Positions 1-28,430 of a stretch of DNA of 53,208 bases are shown here, in pieces (positions within the stretch are counted from its first letter, which is position 1; each line of letters starts with the position of its first letter). This stretch comes from a virus (Duplodnaviria > Heunggongvirae > Uroviricota > Caudoviricetes), in the IMG/VR virus record IMGVR_UViG_2671181011_000016; one strand, given 5' to 3'. The notes under the pieces are model-generated. The model was not told where the DNA came from. It did not search any database and saw only the letters and a list, made by a program, of their open reading frames with translations. Both the position numbers and the translations under genes were made by a program.

Positions 1-2259
1 TTATTCTTCGCTTCCTGTTAACTGCCGGACAAGCGCTTCAAGTTTAGTGATCCGCTCATCCATGACGGCAATGTTAGCGCGTAAGCTGGCGTTTTCCTCT
101 TCCAGTTCGGTGACGCGGTTATCTGTTTCGCGTGCCACCTGGACAAGTAAACCAGTCACCGCAGCGTAGTCAACATTGAGGTAACGCGTTTCCTCGCGTA
201 GCTCGTTGCCGTCAGTGGTCGGGCCTTGTAATGCTTTACCGTAATGAGTAAACGATCCCACAGCCTCCGGCAGCGCCTCCATTACCTCTTGAGCGATAAC
301 GCCAGCGTAAGGCAGGCCGTTTTCCTTGAGGGTGTAGGTGTACCCGTTCATTTTACGGATTGCTTCAGTTGCATCACCTATAACCTGAATGTTGTCCTTC
401 AGATCGCGATCTGAAGTCTGATTAACTGCTGTGCAGTTTACTACGCCGTTAACCTGAAAACTAATTACTCCGTCTGGGTTAAGCTGGCAATAAAAGCCAT
501 ATGTATTATACTCATCGGTTTCAGCGTTCGAGAGTCCATATTCTAAAACGGACTGCCTTGTTTCTGATCCCCATAAGCGTAACCGTGCGTTTGTTTTTGC
601 GTTTTCTATCACATCGATAGTTAAACGTCTTGTGAAATCATAAGAGTTAATTTTTGTCGTCACAAAATGCTGGCCGGCAGTCCATTTTTGACCGGATGTG
701 TTAAGCGTAGCTAGTTGACGCCATTCCTGAACTGTTCCGTTTTCAATTGTTCTACCCCAAAAACCGGAATTTCGACCTCCGAATTGCACAGCGTAATTTG
801 TGCTGTATTGCGCATGGAAGCCGCCAAGCACCATTGCTCCGGCGGGGCCGTTTGTACTTCCCGCCATTGGGATAAATTTTTGGATATTGTCGGTGTGCTG
901 AGTATTCCAGTCCCTTCCTGTTTTTACGAGTACACCTAAATTTGCGTCTAGCGCCTCAGCTAACGTAAGGTTTTTGAATTTAACCGCATTGCTTTCACCA
1001 AGATTTAAATTATTTCTCGCGTCAGATGCTGTTAGCGCACCTGTCCCACCCTGGGATAATGACAAAGGAACCCATCCAGATCCGTTATGACAACCCCACA
1101 ATCCAGATGTTGACACCTGAAGGCGTGGCGCTTCTGGTAAATATTTCGAATAAACGTAAGTGGTGGATTCGCCTTCTTCAACTCTTTCTATTAATACTAT
1201 TTTTTTCCATGCGGTCCAACCTTGTGTGCTGGTATGTGTCCTTGCATAAAAAATTGATGAATTGTTATATACAAAATATTTCTGGATACAACCATCACTA
1301 CCATTAGCACCAGTTCTTTGCACTAACAACGAGCCAGCAAGCTGTATAGGGTAGTTTAATTCAGGTTTTGCGTTTACTGATAACGATTGATGATAAAAGC
1401 CTGCTGCGTTCCCTTTTAAGTCATCAAGATTCTGGCTATCGCTAAGGGTAGTTTTTGCATCATGCATAACCATTAGGTTTTTTCTTGCTTCTGCTTCATT
1501 CCCTGCACCAGTACCGCCAGCAGAAATTGAAAGCGGTATATATTTACTAGCCTCTGAGTCGAAACAACCCCACGAGCCGGAATCGTAGACGGTAAGGAAT
1601 TTATTTGCGTTTTGAGAGCATACGCGCGTTTCTCCTGTCCTCTGAACAAGCCTGTCTACTTCATTTTTTTTTGCGTGACGCGTCCAGTTAGCGCCTGATG
1701 TTGCGACCCATGTATACGTATAAAGTGATCGCGTAGCCCAACCGACAAAGACGCCTGTATATGAAGGCACTGTGTCTCGCTGACAGATAAATCCACTCAA
1801 AAATGATTCGCCAGCCGCTACGGAAGGAAAACCCTTAGTCGTTTCCTTTATGCGCAAAAAGCCAACGTAAGAAGACGGATCGCCTGATATATCGGCGCAA
1901 TCTCGCGGCTCTGGCCCCAAGCCAATATTGCTGCCATCTATTGCGCTGGATATTTCATCTTCCTTTTCCTGATAAAAACGAAGCGTTTCCGCTACATCCT
2001 GGGCAAGCCCATCAACTGAGATAGAGTCAGAAAGCAGAATGCTGAATTTTGCCCCGGCAGCAATTGCAGGGTTAGCCGCTGGCGTCACTGACAGTTCAGT
2101 GCCGCTCTTGATTTCAGTAACGGTAAAGATCTGAATAGGGTTGCTAATAGCAATAAGCGTGCAACCAACACGGATAAGAGAAAGCGGCGCGGAGAAGTTT
2201 GTGCCCGTGCCTTTAACAGTGTTGCCATTGATGGCAATTGTTCCAGTTGTGTAAATCAT
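1..2259 (-). CDS. tail fiber protein with C-terminal intramolecular chaperone (self-cleaving, peptidase S74-like) domain
   Basis: 752-aa ORF with stop at window start; Gly/Ser/Thr-rich body; C-terminus (...RYLNVDYAAVTGLLVQ... then coiled coil) resembles chaperone domains of phage fibres; last gene of the tail operon. Confidence 0.65.
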   Translation of the reverse strand: MIYTTGTIAINGNTVKGTGTNFSAPLSLIRVGCTLIAISNPIQIFTVTEIKSGTELSVTPAANPAIAAGAKFSILLSDSISVDGLAQDVAETLRFYQEKEDEISSAIDGSNIGLGPEPRDCADISGDPSSYVGFLRIKETTKGFPSVAAGESFLSGFICQRDTVPSYTGVFVGWATRSLYTYTWVATSGANWTRHAKKNEVDRLVQRTGETRVCSQNANKFLTVYDSGSWGCFDSEASKYIPLSISAGGTGAGNEAEARKNLMVMHDAKTTLSDSQNLDDLKGNAAGFYHQSLSVNAKPELNYPIQLAGSLLVQRTGANGSDGCIQKYFVYNNSSIFYARTHTSTQGWTAWKKIVLIERVEEGESTTYVYSKYLPEAPRLQVSTSGLWGCHNGSGWVPLSLSQGGTGALTASDARNNLNLGESNAVKFKNLTLAEALDANLGVLVKTGRDWNTQHTDNIQKFIPMAGSTNGPAGAMVLGGFHAQYSTNYAVQFGGRNSGFWGRTIENGTVQEWRQLATLNTSGQKWTAGQHFVTTKINSYDFTRRLTIDVIENAKTNARLRLWGSETRQSVLEYGLSNAETDEYNTYGFYCQLNPDGVISFQVNGVVNCTAVNQTSDRDLKDNIQVIGDATEAIRKMNGYTYTLKENGLPYAGVIAQEVMEALPEAVGSFTHYGKALQGPTTDGNELREETRYLNVDYAAVTGLLVQVARETDNRVTELEEENASLRANIAVMDERITKLEALVRQLTGSEE

Positions 2260-2436
2260 CGCAATGACTCCATTATGTTAATTAACGGAATAATTCTACC
2301 ATTTTGTGATTTTTGTTGCATTTTCTGCTTACACAAAATGTATTTTTTGATTTTTATCAATATACGAAATGTGGTTTTGTCGGATATTTAAGTCACCGGA
2401 TGAACCGGACGAACCAACAAGAATGAGGATTCAAAA

Positions 2437-2685
2437 ATGAAAAACGTGTTCAAAGTGGTTTTGTTCGCTGCGGCTGTAGCTCTTACTGGCTGTGCTGTTG
2501 ACAAAGAGGCTGCATTGCATAATCTGCCGAATAGCGGAGTAATTCCACAAGATGTCGTCTATGATGGCAGCGGTCATCTTGTCTATGACACTGAAAAACT
2601 GCCGTATACTGGGCAATGGTGTCATGAACTCGATCACAACATGCGCCGCATCGGTAGCCCGTCGAATTGTGTAGCTAACTACTAA
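2437..2685 (+). CDS. small lipoprotein (candidate Cor/Llp-type superinfection-exclusion protein)
   Basis: 82 aa; signal peptide with lipobox LTGC; two Cys in the mature part; opposite strand to flanking tail genes; function inferred from context only. Confidence 0.7.
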   Translation: MKNVFKVVLFAAAVALTGCAVDKEAALHNLPNSGVIPQDVVYDGSGHLVYDTEKLPYTGQWCHELDHNMRRIGSPSNCVANY

Positions 2686-2717
2686 AAGAAAACCCCGCGC
2701 GAAGCGGGGTTGTTTTT
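2684..2717. terminator. bidirectional rho-independent terminator
   Basis: A-tract, hairpin CCCCGC-GCGAA-GCGGGG (2693-2709), T-tract; sits between the convergent lipoprotein and J genes. Confidence 0.75.
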
Positions 2718-5700
2718 ATCCTGAGAATGAACCAGAACCGCGCGACACAATGACGGTCGGCGAGTTTATATATGCACCCCTACTATTTTGAGCGGATACC
2801 CTGATTTTAACCGTAACGCCCCTGCTAGTTACCGATGATGAGTGCATAACAAGGCGCTCGTCGCCATTCATAGACAGACTTTTCTCTGAACTGCCGATGA
2901 TTATCGTACAACCACCAAAACCTTTAACGTTTGCCATGACGCAAATATGTCTGCTGTGCGCTGCATTAGATGTGTCATTGTATGTGATTGTTTTTTCCAG
3001 TACTCCATCGGCTAACCTGCTGACGTCGGATCCTGTGTACATGTTCGCAACGTCACCTATAAAGGTTTTAGCCTCAAGTGAACCAGAAAATTTACCGCTA
3101 CTGGCGTGCACTTCACCTCTAACAACAACATTGTTAAATTCAGATGATCCGTCTTTTGTTATCCTCCAACCATTCGAACCAGCGACATAGTTTGATGATT
3201 TTATTTCATTAACAATTTTAGCCATAGTAATGGCTGCATCCGCAATTTTAGCTGTCCCTATTGATGCATTTTTAATAAACGCTTCTTTCACATACATTGC
3301 ACCGTTAGACACATAGAAAGGCGTTGTATATGTGCCGTTTGCTGCAGTCATCAATACGAAGCGGTCAACAAGGAAAATACACTGCGATTGAACGTTAGTA
3401 CCGTTGCCAGTCAGCCCAAGTGACATACCTGTTGCGTACTTCATGCCGTTGTTGTCGGTTGCCAGCTTGATAGAGTACGTCGCATCAACATTACCCTTGA
3501 AGTCGGTTAACGCTTTTGACGTCGTTTCTATTGCTGTTGTGTTCCCGTTAACGGTCACTGTTAGTTGATCGATCTTGCTTGATAGTGCCTCGTCAGCCGT
3601 TGCCATAGCCTGTGACCATTCTGTAATGCTTGAGTTTACAGAATCGAAAGACGCTGAGATCTGGCCGAATTTTTCCGCGCTTGATGCCTCATGCGTAGAA
3701 AGCGCCGTTGATACCTCAGACACCTTCGAGTTTATCGTGCTGGTAAGCGATGAGTTAAGGCTACTTATCGCGTCAGTGCGTGCCTTCGTTTCGTCTGCAA
3801 TTGCCTTGTCAATACGGGTCACGTTGCTTGTAACTTTGCCATCAAGGGTTGAAATTGACGCATTCACGCCGCTGATGGCTTGTGCTCTGGCACTGGCCTC
3901 GTCAGCAATTGCCTGGTCCAGTCTGCTAACTTCGGATTCAGTGTTGCTTTCAAGCGTGTTGATGCTTGCGTTCACACCGCTGATAGCCTCACTTCTTGCG
4001 CTGGTTTCGTCAGCGATTGCCTGGTCTAAGCGCTTAACGCTGGCGGCGGTTTTCTTGTCGAGCGCTGAAATGCTTGCGTTAACGTCGCTTACCGCCTCGC
4101 TGCGTGCGCTGGTTTCGTCAGCGATGGCCTTGTCAAGTCGTGAAACGCTGGCGTTTGTGTTACTTTCGAGCGTTGTTAAATCAGCTTTGACCTCTGTTAT
4201 TGCGTCGCTTCTTGCCTGCGTTTCGTCAGATATTGCCTTATCGAGTCTGCTCACGCTGGCGTCGGTTTTGCTTTCAAGATTGCTTATTGAGGCATTAACG
4301 CCGCTGATTGCCTGCGCACGGGCGCTTGATTCGTCAGCGATTGCTTGATCAAGGCGGTTCACGCTGGCGTCAGTTTTCTTGTCAAGATCAGCGATCGATG
4401 CGTTCACGTTATTAATTGCTTCTGCGCGGGCGCTTGATTCGTCTGCCACTGCGCGTTCCACGCTGGAGATCTGACCCTTAAGGTTGGAATCCATCGTGTT
4501 CATTTCTGCCGTGATGGTTTTCAGCGATTCAGCCGTGGCCCGCTTCTCTTCGGCAATAACGTTGTCGATGCGGTCAATCTGCGCGTTTGTTTCTGATTGC
4601 CCTTTCTTGTACTGTGCAGTGAGCGTAACCCGCGTGTTGGTCTGCGCGAGAGAGTTATTAATCAGCGCCAAAGATGCGTTTTGCAGGCTTGCTTTTGCTT
4701 GCGCCAGTTCGCTGTCGATTCTTTCGCTGGATACCTCTAGCGAGTCAATCCTTACCTCATGTTGCCCAATACCATCGGTGTTTTCACCAACCTTTTTATA
4801 AAGATCTTCCGTCTCTTTTTTCAGCGTGTCAGTGTCAGCTTTTATTTCACCTGTTTCTGTGATTAAGCTGTCAGTGTCAGTCCTCAATTCGTCAGTGATG
4901 TTTGTCAGGTTGTCAGTTGCAGTTTTTAGGTTGTCAGTAGCGTTTTTAAGGTCATTTGTGGCGCTTTCGATAAGGTCGGCACGGTCGCCAAGATCTTTAA
5001 TGTCGCCAATCATGTCCTTGAACTGTTCTGACTCCATGACATCCTTCATCACGTAGTCGCTGATTTCGTCGAAGTTTTCAGTCGGTTTTCCTGATGCCTC
5101 AACGAAGTCTGACACACCGAAAGCGTTACGCGTGCGCACATAAACGTAATATTTATGGCCCGTGTTCATGCCGCCGAAAGTCCATTGGTAGCCGCGCCCG
5201 GTGAATTGCGCCAAAGTTGTTACTTTTGACGGGTCAGTGATCTGATTTTCACCTGAGTAGTAAAACTCATATGCTGTATCAGTTGTCAGGGTTGTTTTGC
5301 TGATCGGATACACTGTTGCCTGGAAAACGCCAGGAACCCAATTAACACCAATCGGGGCGGCTGGCGCACCAATGACCAGATCCACAATACTTTCCGCACC
5401 CTTCATGCCAGTGTCATTACGCCCGCGAATACCAAGCGTGTAGCTGCCAGCGTCGAGGCCATAAAAATCATAGCGGTAGTTCGTGGTTTCATCAGTTGCC
5501 ACTACACGCCCATCGGCGTTATATACGCGAATTTCAAAGGTCAGGCGATGCGTTGTTGTCTGTGTTTCCCACGTTGCGCGACATTGAACAGTTTCAGAAC
5601 CAACATTTAACACCTTCAGGTTTTCGATGTTCGGCACGCGGAAGTGATTAAGCGTGTCGTTGTTTACCTCGAAGATTGCGCCTTCATCAACTACAGCCTG

Positions 5701-7482
5701 TTTGTGTGGATCGTGCTGTGCAGCCTCGATGGTGTACACGCTGTTATTTTCGGTTTCTGCTACGCTAGTGATTCGACACAGAACAGGTTTTGCAGATTCA
5801 GTAGACACGGCGAATACGGTTCCGTTGCGGATCCATGCTGGCGCTTCCGCAAGGGTAATATTGTTTCCGTTAACCCCAGTGATCTGATGTTTTTTGAACT
5901 TGCCGTCGCTGTCCAGTAAGCTGATAGTGTCGCCAGCCGCCACCAGGTCAGAATCAACCTTGTCTACAGTTATCACCTTCCCGTTATTCGCAACGATGCG
6001 ACCGCCCAAACGAGCGCCAGCGCGGTTATTGTCGAGTATCTCGATAATATCCCCTGGCGTGAAGTGAATTGCGTCACGGGCCATTTTAAACGTGAATTTT
6101 GAGGGTTCGCGTTTTGCTGTTTCTATCAGCCATTTGCCAGCGCGGTACGCCTGCCCGCGTGACGTGCAACCGAAAGCCTCCAACGTGGTTTCGTTGTAAC
6201 CATCGCGGGCGATCAGTTCGTCATCTGCCACGTATTCTTTTGATTGTTCCCAACCGTTTTCCGGGTCAGTCCATGACACGATCACGGCGTTGTAAGATTC
6301 TGCGCGGGCGATACTTGAACGAGTAAACGCACCATCAACGACATTAGCATTTGTGATGGTGGCAATTGGATCCTGCGGCGCATCAATCATCACAGTAAGG
6401 CGCTGCCCGTCCCATAACGCGATACCACGGAACATACCTGCAATGTTGTCCAGCAAGTCGCGGGCGCTCATTTGCTCCGTGATGTAAGCGTTAAGCGTCA
6501 TGCGTGGTTCAAGGCCACCGTAACCGTCGTTCACCAACTGGTCGCAGTATTGAGAAAGCGTATACAGTGCGCCATCATCAACGTCGATGTAACCAGCGTG
6601 GCGGGCAAGCCCGAAGCGTTCATTTTTCACCAGATACCGGAAAAGCCATGCAGGGTTATTGGTGTATGCCTTTTTAAAGCCACCAAGCCATAAACCTGAG
6701 TACGTGCGCGTTTCCGGGTCGTAGTTATCAGGCACGTCAACAATCAGGCCGCGCATGTGATAAGTACGTGTCGGCGTGTCAGTATACTGATCGTGGTCAA
6801 TTACCGCGCCTGCTACAGCGGTGTGAGGATAAGATAAATTATCGTCGATTATCTCGCTGTAACTGCTCCACCTGGTGTCGTTGTGAAGTAGATCGCCTGT
6901 GCTGTCTGGCGTTACGCGACGAACGCGAATATCAAACGGTTTTTCATCCGGCGCTTTGATGATGTGCGCTTCGAGGTACTCACCGCTTTGTTTACCCGGG
7001 CCGATGTGAATATCTTTAACCAGTGACCACGTTGTTGAAGATGAAGGCTTAACGTCAACCATCAACGTAACGGATGTATTGTATTGATTGCCCTTATCAT
7101 CTGACTGAACCAGAGAATCAACGCCAAGATTCAGCCTTACGCGGTTAACGTTTGGATCTGAAACGGTCCTGATTATTGGCGTATCGTGAGTCACTTTTGC
7201 GTTGACAATAACGGTTGATTCAATGGCGTTGAAGCCATTGATTGGTGACTGGTCAGCCGTACCATTACGCCACGCCACACTAACGCCGGGGACTGATGTA
7301 CTGCCGTCGCTACCAGTGATAGGCGTGTCATTAAGCATTACGCTGTTTAATGGCGCTTTCTGGTTTACAGGGCCGTATATTGGGCCTTCGCTGAGAATGT
7401 CCAAAACACGATAAAACTGTTTGTGGAACAGGTTATCGTTTAATAGTGTTGGTGTTTTGGCTTTGCCGCCGCCGCTACTCAT
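2716..7482 (-). CDS. J: tail tip attachment / host specificity protein, lambda J-like, with expanded coiled-coil repeat region
   Basis: 1588 aa; N-terminal half aligns by eye with lambda gpJ (ILSEGPI.GPV, PFDIRVRR.TPDST, TLNAYITEQ, EAFGCTSRGQAYRAGKWL); C-terminal part also J-like around the repeat insertion. Confidence 0.85.
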   Translation of the reverse strand: MSSGGGKAKTPTLLNDNLFHKQFYRVLDILSEGPIYGPVNQKAPLNSVMLNDTPITGSDGSTSVPGVSVAWRNGTADQSPINGFNAIESTVIVNAKVTHDTPIIRTVSDPNVNRVRLNLGVDSLVQSDDKGNQYNTSVTLMVDVKPSSSTTWSLVKDIHIGPGKQSGEYLEAHIIKAPDEKPFDIRVRRVTPDSTGDLLHNDTRWSSYSEIIDDNLSYPHTAVAGAVIDHDQYTDTPTRTYHMRGLIVDVPDNYDPETRTYSGLWLGGFKKAYTNNPAWLFRYLVKNERFGLARHAGYIDVDDGALYTLSQYCDQLVNDGYGGLEPRMTLNAYITEQMSARDLLDNIAGMFRGIALWDGQRLTVMIDAPQDPIATITNANVVDGAFTRSSIARAESYNAVIVSWTDPENGWEQSKEYVADDELIARDGYNETTLEAFGCTSRGQAYRAGKWLIETAKREPSKFTFKMARDAIHFTPGDIIEILDNNRAGARLGGRIVANNGKVITVDKVDSDLVAAGDTISLLDSDGKFKKHQITGVNGNNITLAEAPAWIRNGTVFAVSTESAKPVLCRITSVAETENNSVYTIEAAQHDPHKQAVVDEGAIFEVNNDTLNHFRVPNIENLKVLNVGSETVQCRATWETQTTTHRLTFEIRVYNADGRVVATDETTNYRYDFYGLDAGSYTLGIRGRNDTGMKGAESIVDLVIGAPAAPIGVNWVPGVFQATVYPISKTTLTTDTAYEFYYSGENQITDPSKVTTLAQFTGRGYQWTFGGMNTGHKYYVYVRTRNAFGVSDFVEASGKPTENFDEISDYVMKDVMESEQFKDMIGDIKDLGDRADLIESATNDLKNATDNLKTATDNLTNITDELRTDTDSLITETGEIKADTDTLKKETEDLYKKVGENTDGIGQHEVRIDSLEVSSERIDSELAQAKASLQNASLALINNSLAQTNTRVTLTAQYKKGQSETNAQIDRIDNVIAEEKRATAESLKTITAEMNTMDSNLKGQISSVERAVADESSARAEAINNVNASIADLDKKTDASVNRLDQAIADESSARAQAISGVNASISNLESKTDASVSRLDKAISDETQARSDAITEVKADLTTLESNTNASVSRLDKAIADETSARSEAVSDVNASISALDKKTAASVKRLDQAIADETSARSEAISGVNASINTLESNTESEVSRLDQAIADEASARAQAISGVNASISTLDGKVTSNVTRIDKAIADETKARTDAISSLNSSLTSTINSKVSEVSTALSTHEASSAEKFGQISASFDSVNSSITEWSQAMATADEALSSKIDQLTVTVNGNTTAIETTSKALTDFKGNVDATYSIKLATDNNGMKYATGMSLGLTGNGTNVQSQCIFLVDRFVLMTAANGTYTTPFYVSNGAMYVKEAFIKNASIGTAKIADAAITMAKIVNEIKSSNYVAGSNGWRITKDGSSEFNNVVVRGEVHASSGKFSGSLEAKTFIGDVANMYTGSDVSRLADGVLEKTITYNDTSNAAHSRHICVMANVKGFGGCTIIIGSSEKSLSMNGDERLVMHSSSVTSRGVTVKIRVSAQNSRGAYINSPTVIVSRGSGSFSG
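3760..4460 (-). repeat. in-frame tandem repeats (about 7 copies of a ~105-bp / 35-aa unit) inside J
   Basis: Protein shows repeated units SVSRLD(K/Q)AIADE(T/S)SARSEAISGVNASI...; the antisense ORF track shows matching periodic LALVSSAIAWS units; boundaries approximate. Confidence 0.7.
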
Positions 7483-27480: not shown

Positions 27481-27951
27481 TTATTCTTTGCGTAAACACT
27501 GCGTTTTGATGTAGCCCTGAAGTGCGGTTATCTTCGCGTCTTTCTCTTTTAGTTGTTCTCTGAGGGATAGATAAGCCGATTCAGCGTCGGGAGTGAGTCT
27601 ACAGGCGGCTCCATCAATGGCGCTGGCGGATCCGGCGGGGTCGGACACTCGCACGGGTATTGCGTTGACGCGCAACCGGATAGTACCGTTATCAATACCA
27701 GTGCGCAGATCGGCAATGTCAGATCTGATAGCTTTAATCTCATCGTGATACCTCTTATCAAGTTTTGACAGTTCGGCGTTTCGCTCCTTCATTTGCTGTA
27801 TGGTGTTACTCGCTGTTTTTAATGCGCCTTGCGTTGTCGTTAGTTCTTCCTGTAAGCGCGTTACAGCTCCCTGTGTCTGACATAGTGCAGCGGTAAGCCC
27901 GACGATAATGCAAACAACCACGGCGATGATTAACGTCTTCACCTTGTCCAT
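27481..27951 (-). CDS. Rz: i-spanin Rz
   Basis: 156 aa; N-terminal TM helix then coiled-coil periplasmic domain; directly downstream of the endolysin with overlap; contains embedded Rz1. Confidence 0.8.
27549..27743 (-). CDS. Rz1: o-spanin Rz1 (lipoprotein, embedded in Rz in another frame)
   Basis: 64 aa from ATG with RBS AAGAGG: signal peptide with lipobox LSGC, Pro-rich mature part; fully inside the Rz ORF. Confidence 0.75.
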   Translation of the reverse strand: MRLKLSDLTLPICALVLITVLSGCASTQYPCECPTPPDPPAPLMEPPVDSLPTLNRLIYPSENN

Positions 27952-28430
27952 TTCTCACCCCATTCGCAAACGGCATATTCAACATCGCGGCGGTTTACCA
28001 GGCCTTGCCACTTCTTACCGCCAGCGTATACCCAGCGCTTAAGCTGTGCGCACGCTTCTGATTTCTTGCCGTCATTGAGTAGCTTTAATAAGGTTGATGT
28101 TTTGAAGTTGGTTGCGCCTACGTTATAGGCGAAGGAATAAAGTGCTGCGCGGGTAAAATCTGATATTTCGACTTTGATATATGGGTCAATCGCTTTTGCG
28201 GTCTTATGTAGATCTTTGTTCAACAAAGCATCGCATTCTGATTGCGTGTAAGTCTTCCCAAGCATGATGTCTTTTCCGGTGTGACCGTAGCAAACAGTCC
28301 ATACACCAACAACATCACGATAAGGATCGTATTCCACGCCCTCTAATGGCTTAATCATCACCGCCGCAATAGCGATCGCCCCACCAGCCGCCGCCGCAAC
28401 AATCTTGTTTTTCAGCGATTGGCTAATCAT
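27939..28430 (-). CDS. SAR endolysin (T4-type lysozyme, GH24)
   Basis: 163 aa; N-terminal weakly hydrophobic Ala/Gly-rich SAR segment; catalytic-type E..D..T spacing ([16 protein letters not shown]); ATG abuts holin stop. Confidence 0.85.

Follow-up and report, generated by a model that had tools for sequence, protein, structure and literature searches.

The closest described relatives of the locus analyzed here are the exclusion lipoproteins of the mEpimmI phages. The gene for gp116 of phage mEp010 was cloned as pLpp010 (Negrete-Mendez et al. 2025, Front Microbiol 16:1480411, PMC11893012), and its product, Lpp010, expressed alone in Escherichia coli K-12, excluded mEp010, mEp044, mEp554 and lambda and did not exclude mEp013. 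The assay relied on IPTG-inducible expression from a Ptac plasmid rather than on a lysogen (PMC11893012). Experiments with Keio mutants described there attribute a need for LamB to mEp010, mEp013, mEp044 and mEp554 and a need for OmpA to mEp021 and mEp515, and the type-A lipoprotein Lpp021 of mEp021 is described as excluding mEp021 and mEp515 only (PMC11893012). A second reference system is Llp of phage T5, which binds the plug of FhuA from the periplasm and folds the loops EL7 and EL8 inward (PMC9586334). LamB lacks a plug domain, no allostery is known for it, and lipoproteins directed at LamB have been flagged as mechanistically unexplained (PMC9586334). Because LamB is plugless, the mechanism of Llp is not simply transferable to it.

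We analyzed a stretch of 53,208 nucleotides of DNA from a virus of the Caudoviricetes (IMG/VR record IMGVR_UViG_2671181011_000016), which as a whole is referred to below as the window. The DNA of its lipoprotein region was 86-91% identical to that of Escherichia phages mEp044, mEp554, mEp013 and mEp010. Across 85-91% of its length, a 24.5-kb stretch of the window was ~90% identical to mEp010, mEp554 and mEp044, indicating that the phage belongs to the mEpimmI group, that is, to the Nus-dependent, non-lambdoid temperate coliphages. No deposited genome was identical to the window. Positions 1-3 of the window hold the stop codon of the tail-fibre gene, and its orientation is the reverse complement of that of the mEp GenBank records, in which J, lpp and the tail-fibre gene come last; this gives it the appearance of an entire phage or prophage genome that was cut at the conventional end.

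The lipoprotein gene is flanked by two genes of the minus strand. On one side lies a side tail-fibre gene (1-2259, minus strand, 752 aa) whose product carries a C-terminal Peptidase_S74 intramolecular chaperone domain. On the other side lies gene J (2716-7482, minus strand), which encodes the central tail fibre or tip attachment protein of 1588 aa with five GpJ/tail-tip Pfam domains, all scoring over the curated Pfam cut-offs. The gap of 458 bp between the start of the tail-fibre gene and the stop of J holds an ORF on the plus strand (2437-2685; 82 aa plus stop), with a GAGGA Shine-Dalgarno sequence at 2425-2429 and 7 nt between it and the ATG. Read from the sequence, the product begins with MKNVFKVVLFAAAVALTG and continues with CAVDK, the cut falling before Cys19. 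The signal peptide (residues 1-18; 2437-2490, plus strand) is made up of the n-region MKNVFK, the hydrophobic core VVLFAAAVA and the residues LTG that precede Cys19. The lipobox L-T-G-C thus occupies residues 16-19, with Cys19 as the lipidated residue; the pattern applied, [LVI][ASTVI][GAS]C, was taken from PMC11893012. The mature lipoprotein of 64 aa (2491-2682, plus strand) consists of a variable tether (residues 20-30) and a conserved core (residues 31-82), and it contains two further cysteines, C62 and C78. An earlier reading of the same DNA, made from the letters alone and referred to here as the sequence-only reading, had described an 82-aa plus-strand lipoprotein with an LTGC lipobox and two mature cysteines between two minus-strand genes, and every element of that description is present.

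The ORF at 2437-2685 is a genuine gene and no chance ORF, because homologues are encoded in 44 phage records and because the 13 nucleotide differences from the mEp010 ORF are all synonymous (13/13, with 0 non-synonymous). Compared with the ORFs of mEp013, mEp044 and mEp554, there are 6-11 synonymous and 2-3 non-synonymous differences. The wholly synonymous divergence from mEp010 points to strong purifying selection on the lipoprotein gene. We aligned homologues in two sets (18 and 22 sequences) and found no exception to the lipobox cysteine in either. C78 was constant in both alignments, and C62 was constant in the 18-sequence alignment and replaced in just one metagenomic sequence of the 22-sequence alignment; the two residues probably form a disulphide. 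The motifs PNSGV.P, TE, TGQW and SNC were also constant across the alignments, and the 10 residues that follow the lipidated cysteine differed in sequence and length among homologues, in the manner of a tether. At position +2 after the lipidated cysteine the residue is Ala here and is Asp in no family member. Under the Lol sorting rule, by which a residue other than Asp at +2 leads to outer-membrane targeting, this predicts that the lipoprotein is sorted to the outer membrane.

The product is identical to that of mEp010_116 (gp116, Lpp010), a type-C Lpp of the mEpimmI phages, at 82 of 82 residues, and it is 93-99% identical to the lipoproteins of mEp013, mEp044, mEp554 and MagusPhagus. The profile phrog_12984, named 'lipoprotein', matched residues 7-82 with an E-value of 1e-26. 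Among the features that define the Lpp010 family, those found here are homology over the whole mature protein, the lipobox cysteine, the location between J and the tail fibre on the opposite strand and convergent with J, and a J tip of the LamB type. Compared with the Lpp010 locus itself, the amino acid sequence, the phage group, the opposite-strand site between J and the tail fibre and the shared terminator are the same; the two loci differ by the 13 synonymous nucleotides and by a J tip that is 72% identical to that of mEp010. Given the complete identity to an experimentally assayed protein, the superinfection-exclusion function of this lipoprotein is already known, published as that of Lpp010. 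We consider it probable that this protein, the same as Lpp010, serves a LamB-dependent mEpimmI phage in superinfection exclusion (lytic/lysogenic conversion) and that it blocks LamB. A receptor-blocking superinfection-exclusion lipoprotein is also what the sequence-only reading had proposed, and the 100% identity to a protein that excludes LamB-dependent phages bears this proposal out.

To which receptor the exclusion relates can be approached from the tip of J. The last 110 aa of J (2719-3048, minus strand) form a putative LamB-binding domain that is found together with Lpp010-type lipoproteins. The tip encoded in the window was 88% identical to those of mEp554 and CSP1C, 86% to that of mEp044, 75% to that of mEp013, 72% to that of mEp010, and 60% to those of KurtStettler and 9g. 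From the 88% identity to the mEp554 and CSP1C tips, LamB is likely the receptor of the window phage, and the phage is predicted to be sensitive to its own lipoprotein. The sequence-only reading had listed FhuA, BtuB, OmpC and similar receptors for testing and had not named LamB. The carriers of the Lpp010 family with a known receptor (mEp010/013/044/554, CSP1 and KurtStettler/Bas22) all use LamB, the evidence for CSP1 coming from PMC13577005 and that for the Seuratvirus KurtStettler (Bas22) from PMC8594841.

The phenotype of Lpp010 agrees with a receptor-directed action. In a comparison with lambda J, the last ~110 residues of the window's J showed no detectable similarity past the FIGDV motif. 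Because lambda is excluded despite its unlike J C-terminus and shares just LamB with the mEp010 group, exclusion is directed at the receptor rather than at any one phage. Cells that express Lpp010 still contain LamB in a usable form, since mEp013, which is strictly LamB-dependent, plates on them. This favours a masking or conformational change of LamB, tolerated by some tip variants, rather than a loss of LamB. The tip of mEp013 is among the more divergent ones (75% identity to that of the window, against 86-88% for mEp044 and mEp554).

The plating of mEp013 also bears on whether exclusion might be indirect, that is, whether an over-produced lipoprotein causes envelope stress that lowers the amount of LamB, so that the phenotype would be an artefact of plasmid expression. 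Small RNAs that depend on sigmaE repress both lamB and ompA, which would give such an artefact a route. The dependence of the published assay on Ptac expression would also fit it. The absolute need of mEp013 for LamB is, however, hard to reconcile with its growth on Lpp010-expressing cells under this explanation, and the patterns of Lpp010 and Lpp021 are reciprocal and receptor-specific. Strong purifying selection and the conserved linkage to the receptor-binding domain argue in addition for a dedicated function. Taken together, indirect exclusion through envelope stress is very unlikely.

We further analyzed the distribution of the lipoprotein and the J tip among phages. The lipoprotein family accompanies the J tip domain in five or more lineages of phages whose tails differ. 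The convergent pair of J and lipoprotein genes was also found in Seuratvirus, Nonagvirus (9g), Dhillonvirus (EP23) and a Drexlerviridae phage (Henuseptimavirus AS5); in the first three, the lipoprotein gene is flanked by a tail-fibre gene on the side away from J, and AS5 has none there. In the Queuovirinae-like phages CSP1 and CSP1C, DNA similarity was confined to the 3' parts of two genes, namely half of the lipoprotein gene and the terminal portion of J. The lipoprotein gene and the J tip thus appear to form a mobile host-recognition module, and we propose that the gene and the C-terminal receptor-binding domain of J may be exchanged as such between unrelated siphovirus lineages. The pairing is not strict. 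MagusPhagus encodes a lipoprotein that is 93% identical, but its J tip is of a different subtype (28-34% identity to that of the window; locus L002, 6478-7210), which also occurs in Dhillonvirus EP23 and in Enterobacter phage AS5. This mismatch indicates that the lipoprotein and the tip domain can recombine apart.

The same distribution helps to evaluate a block that acts after binding, in which LamB is left untouched and the passage of DNA through the periplasm or the inner membrane is impeded, either at the tape-measure or ejection proteins or at the ManXYZ route of lambda. Such a block would sidestep the lack of a plug or of allostery in LamB. Its difficulty is that specificity tracks the receptor: Lpp010 acts on LamB users including the unrelated lambda, and Lpp021 acts on OmpA users only, although these belong to the same group and have near-identical tail and ejection machinery. 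A family that accompanies the J tip across at least five lineages with different tails is likewise not what a target in the ejection machinery would lead one to expect, and the residue at +2 predicts the outer and not the inner membrane. We consider a post-binding block improbable.

For the preferred reading, a lipoprotein that blocks LamB, we propose the following course of events. The precursor would be exported, lipidated at Cys19 and cleaved by signal peptidase II, and the Ala at +2 would lead to its delivery to the outer membrane by the Lol pathway. The disulphide between C62 and C78 would form in the periplasm. The 52-residue core, held on a short variable tether, may then bind LamB and alter or mask the surface that the J tip recognises. 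An incoming phage, or progeny at cell debris, would consequently be left without irreversible adsorption or without the trigger for DNA ejection. A more specific version, which we hold only tentatively and regard as having somewhat less than an even chance, is that LamB is blocked by a mechanism other than that of Llp. The disulphide loop might be threaded into the channel from the periplasm, or a surface-flipped cap might sit on the loops bound by J, and the J variant of mEp013 would escape. If this were true, it would provide the first tractable model of porin-directed exclusion, a gap named by van den Berg et al. 2022. The mechanism alone would then be new, the protein and its phenotype having been published already.

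A small outer-membrane lipoprotein with cysteines also recalls Rz1 and Bor, so that a role in lysis, as an Rz1-type o-spanin, or in virulence, as a Bor-like serum-resistance factor, has to be weighed; the location in the tail region would then be incidental. The window contains a separate lysis cassette 25 kb away, comprising a phage lysozyme gene (27939-28430, minus strand), an Rz i-spanin gene (27481-27951, minus strand) and, embedded in Rz in another frame, a Pro-rich lipoprotein ORF with the lipobox LSGC that resembles an Rz1 o-spanin (27549-27761, minus strand). The product of 2437-2685 was rejected as an Rz1-type o-spanin because Rz with its embedded Rz1-like gene is found at 27481-27951. 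A Pfam search with E-values up to 10 gave no match of the lipoprotein to Bor, Rz1 or any other family, and Pfam (E up to 10) and NCBIfam together returned nothing past generic signal-peptide matches. The probability that this is a lysis or virulence lipoprotein is negligible.

Searching the PDB sequences with the family profile gave chance-level matches only, to unrelated proteins (E 0.83 and 1.6), and did not match the FhuA-Llp entry. AlphaFold2 with the family alignment reached a pLDDT of 57.6 for the full-length protein and 54.7 for the mature form, values at which a search for similar folds would not be meaningful. When 1.84 billion representatives were searched exhaustively with a profile, just 3 small relatives and one odd repetitive protein of 4444 aa came up. 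The latter (P0028) aligned with positions 7-44 of the family profile at 39 separate places (E 6.8e-06), and this match is probably a repetitive or low-complexity artefact. Among 5426 complete E. coli genomes, the lipoprotein gene was found in 17.

Finally, we examined the sequences around the gene. A bidirectional intrinsic terminator (2691-2711, both strands) is common to the lipoprotein gene on the plus strand and J on the minus strand. It has an 8-bp stem with 6 GC pairs, is flanked by an A-run and a T-run, and lies 6 bases past the stop codon of the lipoprotein gene. The hairpin was called on both strands, at -17.7 kcal/mol on the plus strand (z -3.9) and -14.8 on the minus strand (z -2.6), in agreement with the bidirectional terminator noted in the sequence-only reading, and the mEp phage records annotate the same terminator. 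The non-coding region upstream of the gene (2260-2436, plus strand, 177 bp, including the GAGGA site) has a GC content of 32%, against 46.5% for the whole window, and is 96% conserved among mEp010/013/044/554 and MagusPhagus, exceeding the flanking genes. It had been called AT-rich and promoter-like, and the first part of this description holds. For the second, a scan of 2100-2900 for consensus sigma-70 promoters found 0 against 1.7 expected by chance, and the best hit of a relaxed sigma-70 scan upstream of the gene had 8/12 matches. Because neither scan gave a consensus promoter, what is left behind the term promoter-like is the AT-richness and the conservation. The fold of the 5' UTR of the lipoprotein gene was no more stable than that of shuffled sequences (z +1.26).

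Within the upstream region, a 38-aa ORF (2275-2391, plus strand) was considered and rejected as a gene. In mEp010 its stop codon is missing, and in mEp013 its reading frame is shifted by a deletion of 1 nt. PHANOTATE annotates its counterpart as 'hypothetical protein' in mEp010, mEp013, mEp044, mEp554 and MagusPhagus. The ORF is probably no gene, and given the 96% conservation, the DNA at 2275-2391 may instead be regulatory sequence. The 5' leader also contains a tandem 9-mer, ACCGGATGA ACCGGACGA (window 2395-2413, plus strand), where relatives have two copies of CCGGATGAA. This tandem arrangement is retained across the mEp relatives, and it could be a protein-binding site.

Gene J contains repeats of its own. 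In the coiled-coil part, tandem repeats of 108 nt (36 aa) are present in 2-2.6 copies with a 74-79% match (window 3962-4268, minus strand), and 21-nt repeats occur at 4891-4952. The length of J ranges from about 1500 to 1830 aa among mEp relatives in which J is fully visible and is 1478 aa in MagusPhagus, and this variation probably arises via the repeat region. The description of the mEpimmI phages likewise mentions repeats that differ in length (PMC11893012).

These results allow a functional name to be attached to a gene whose public label is still 'hypothetical protein', both in the GenBank entries of the mEp phages and in the RefSeq prophages of E. coli among the 17 carriers. A suitable new name is LamB-associated superinfection-exclusion lipoprotein, and the joint presence of the gene and the J tip domain predicts LamB as the receptor of the window phage. 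The Lpp010 family is the sole experimentally supported group of phage lipoproteins that exclude lambda and other LamB users. Because the family recurs in several common coliphage genera of phage-therapy collections, lysogens or plasmids with the gene would be cross-resistant to many LamB-dependent phages.

Among known exclusion systems, Cor, found in T1, phi80, N15, HK022 and lambdoid mEp phages, is comparable in several respects. At about 75-80 aa, it is likewise a small lipoprotein of the outer membrane, and it likewise shuts out phages that depend on the same receptor in that membrane. The target of Cor is FhuA, a TonB-dependent transporter with a plug, whereas the link here is to LamB, a plugless trimeric porin. 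T5 Llp is similar in having a small, disulphide-constrained mature part and in inactivating the receptor of its own phage, and it guards against both superinfection and the loss of progeny on debris. Llp, too, is poorly predicted by AlphaFold2 (PMC9586334). The resemblance in layout that the sequence-only reading had drawn to both Cor and Llp applies to one of them: T1 cor is convergent, lies just downstream of the receptor-binding genes and shares a terminator with them, while T5 llp and oad run divergently and have a promoter region in common.

Sequence comparisons separate the lipoprotein from both families, and the caution voiced earlier about similarity to Llp and Cor was well placed, as all of these alignments were confined to the signal peptide. 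The PHROG of Cor (phrog_1119) matched residues 1-22 only (E 0.25), hhalign aligned T1 Cor with residues 1-23 only, and the alignment with T5 Llp covered residues 1-22 only with a probability of 53%. The profile search of 1.84 billion representatives gave no sequence-level bridge to Cor or Llp. Because its mature part has no sequence similarity to either, the lipoprotein is a functional analogue of Cor and Llp outside both families.

The homologues in LamB-targeting Seuratvirus, Nonagvirus and Dhillonvirus phages (for example KurtStettler, CAjan, Seurat, 9g, EP23 and CSP1) are more closely related. Their identity is 50-66% when the full length is compared and rises to 67-77% within the 52 conserved residues at the C-terminus, and the cysteines and the lipobox are kept. 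Their layout, convergent with J, is alike, and the receptor is LamB wherever it is known. They differ in a shorter, Gly/Asn-rich tether after the lipidated cysteine. Because their carriers are virulent, these lipoproteins must act during lytic growth. Their exclusion role is putative, and the literature searched contained no experimental test of them. The lipoprotein gene of KurtStettler has a near-consensus sigma-70 promoter (TTGACT-16-TATATT; locus L008, 2361-2388), of a kind that the window lacks, and its own bidirectional terminator. This difference hints that the gene may be regulated differently in the virulent KurtStettler and in temperate phages of the mEp type.

The last comparison is with Lpp021 (gp81 of mEp021, a type-A Lpp), which is also a lipoprotein with experimentally shown exclusion and is encoded at the same locus by a phage of this group. 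The two sequences are unrelated (24% identity, E 0.02), and Lpp021 targets OmpA-dependent phages. The mEp021 locus differs as well, in that lpp is followed by an extra virion gene on the plus strand and J has no tip domain of the LamB type. That extra gene, gp80, encodes a 311-aa 'virion structural protein' on the same strand as gp81 and opposite to J (locus L014, 1762-2915), and J of mEp021 ends shortly past the motif WMINKDG...VRG. It is unusual for a structural protein, which in this case may bind a receptor, to be encoded antisense to the tail operon. At this locus, a different cassette accompanies a different receptor: the OmpA-dependent mEp021 has another lipoprotein and another J end.
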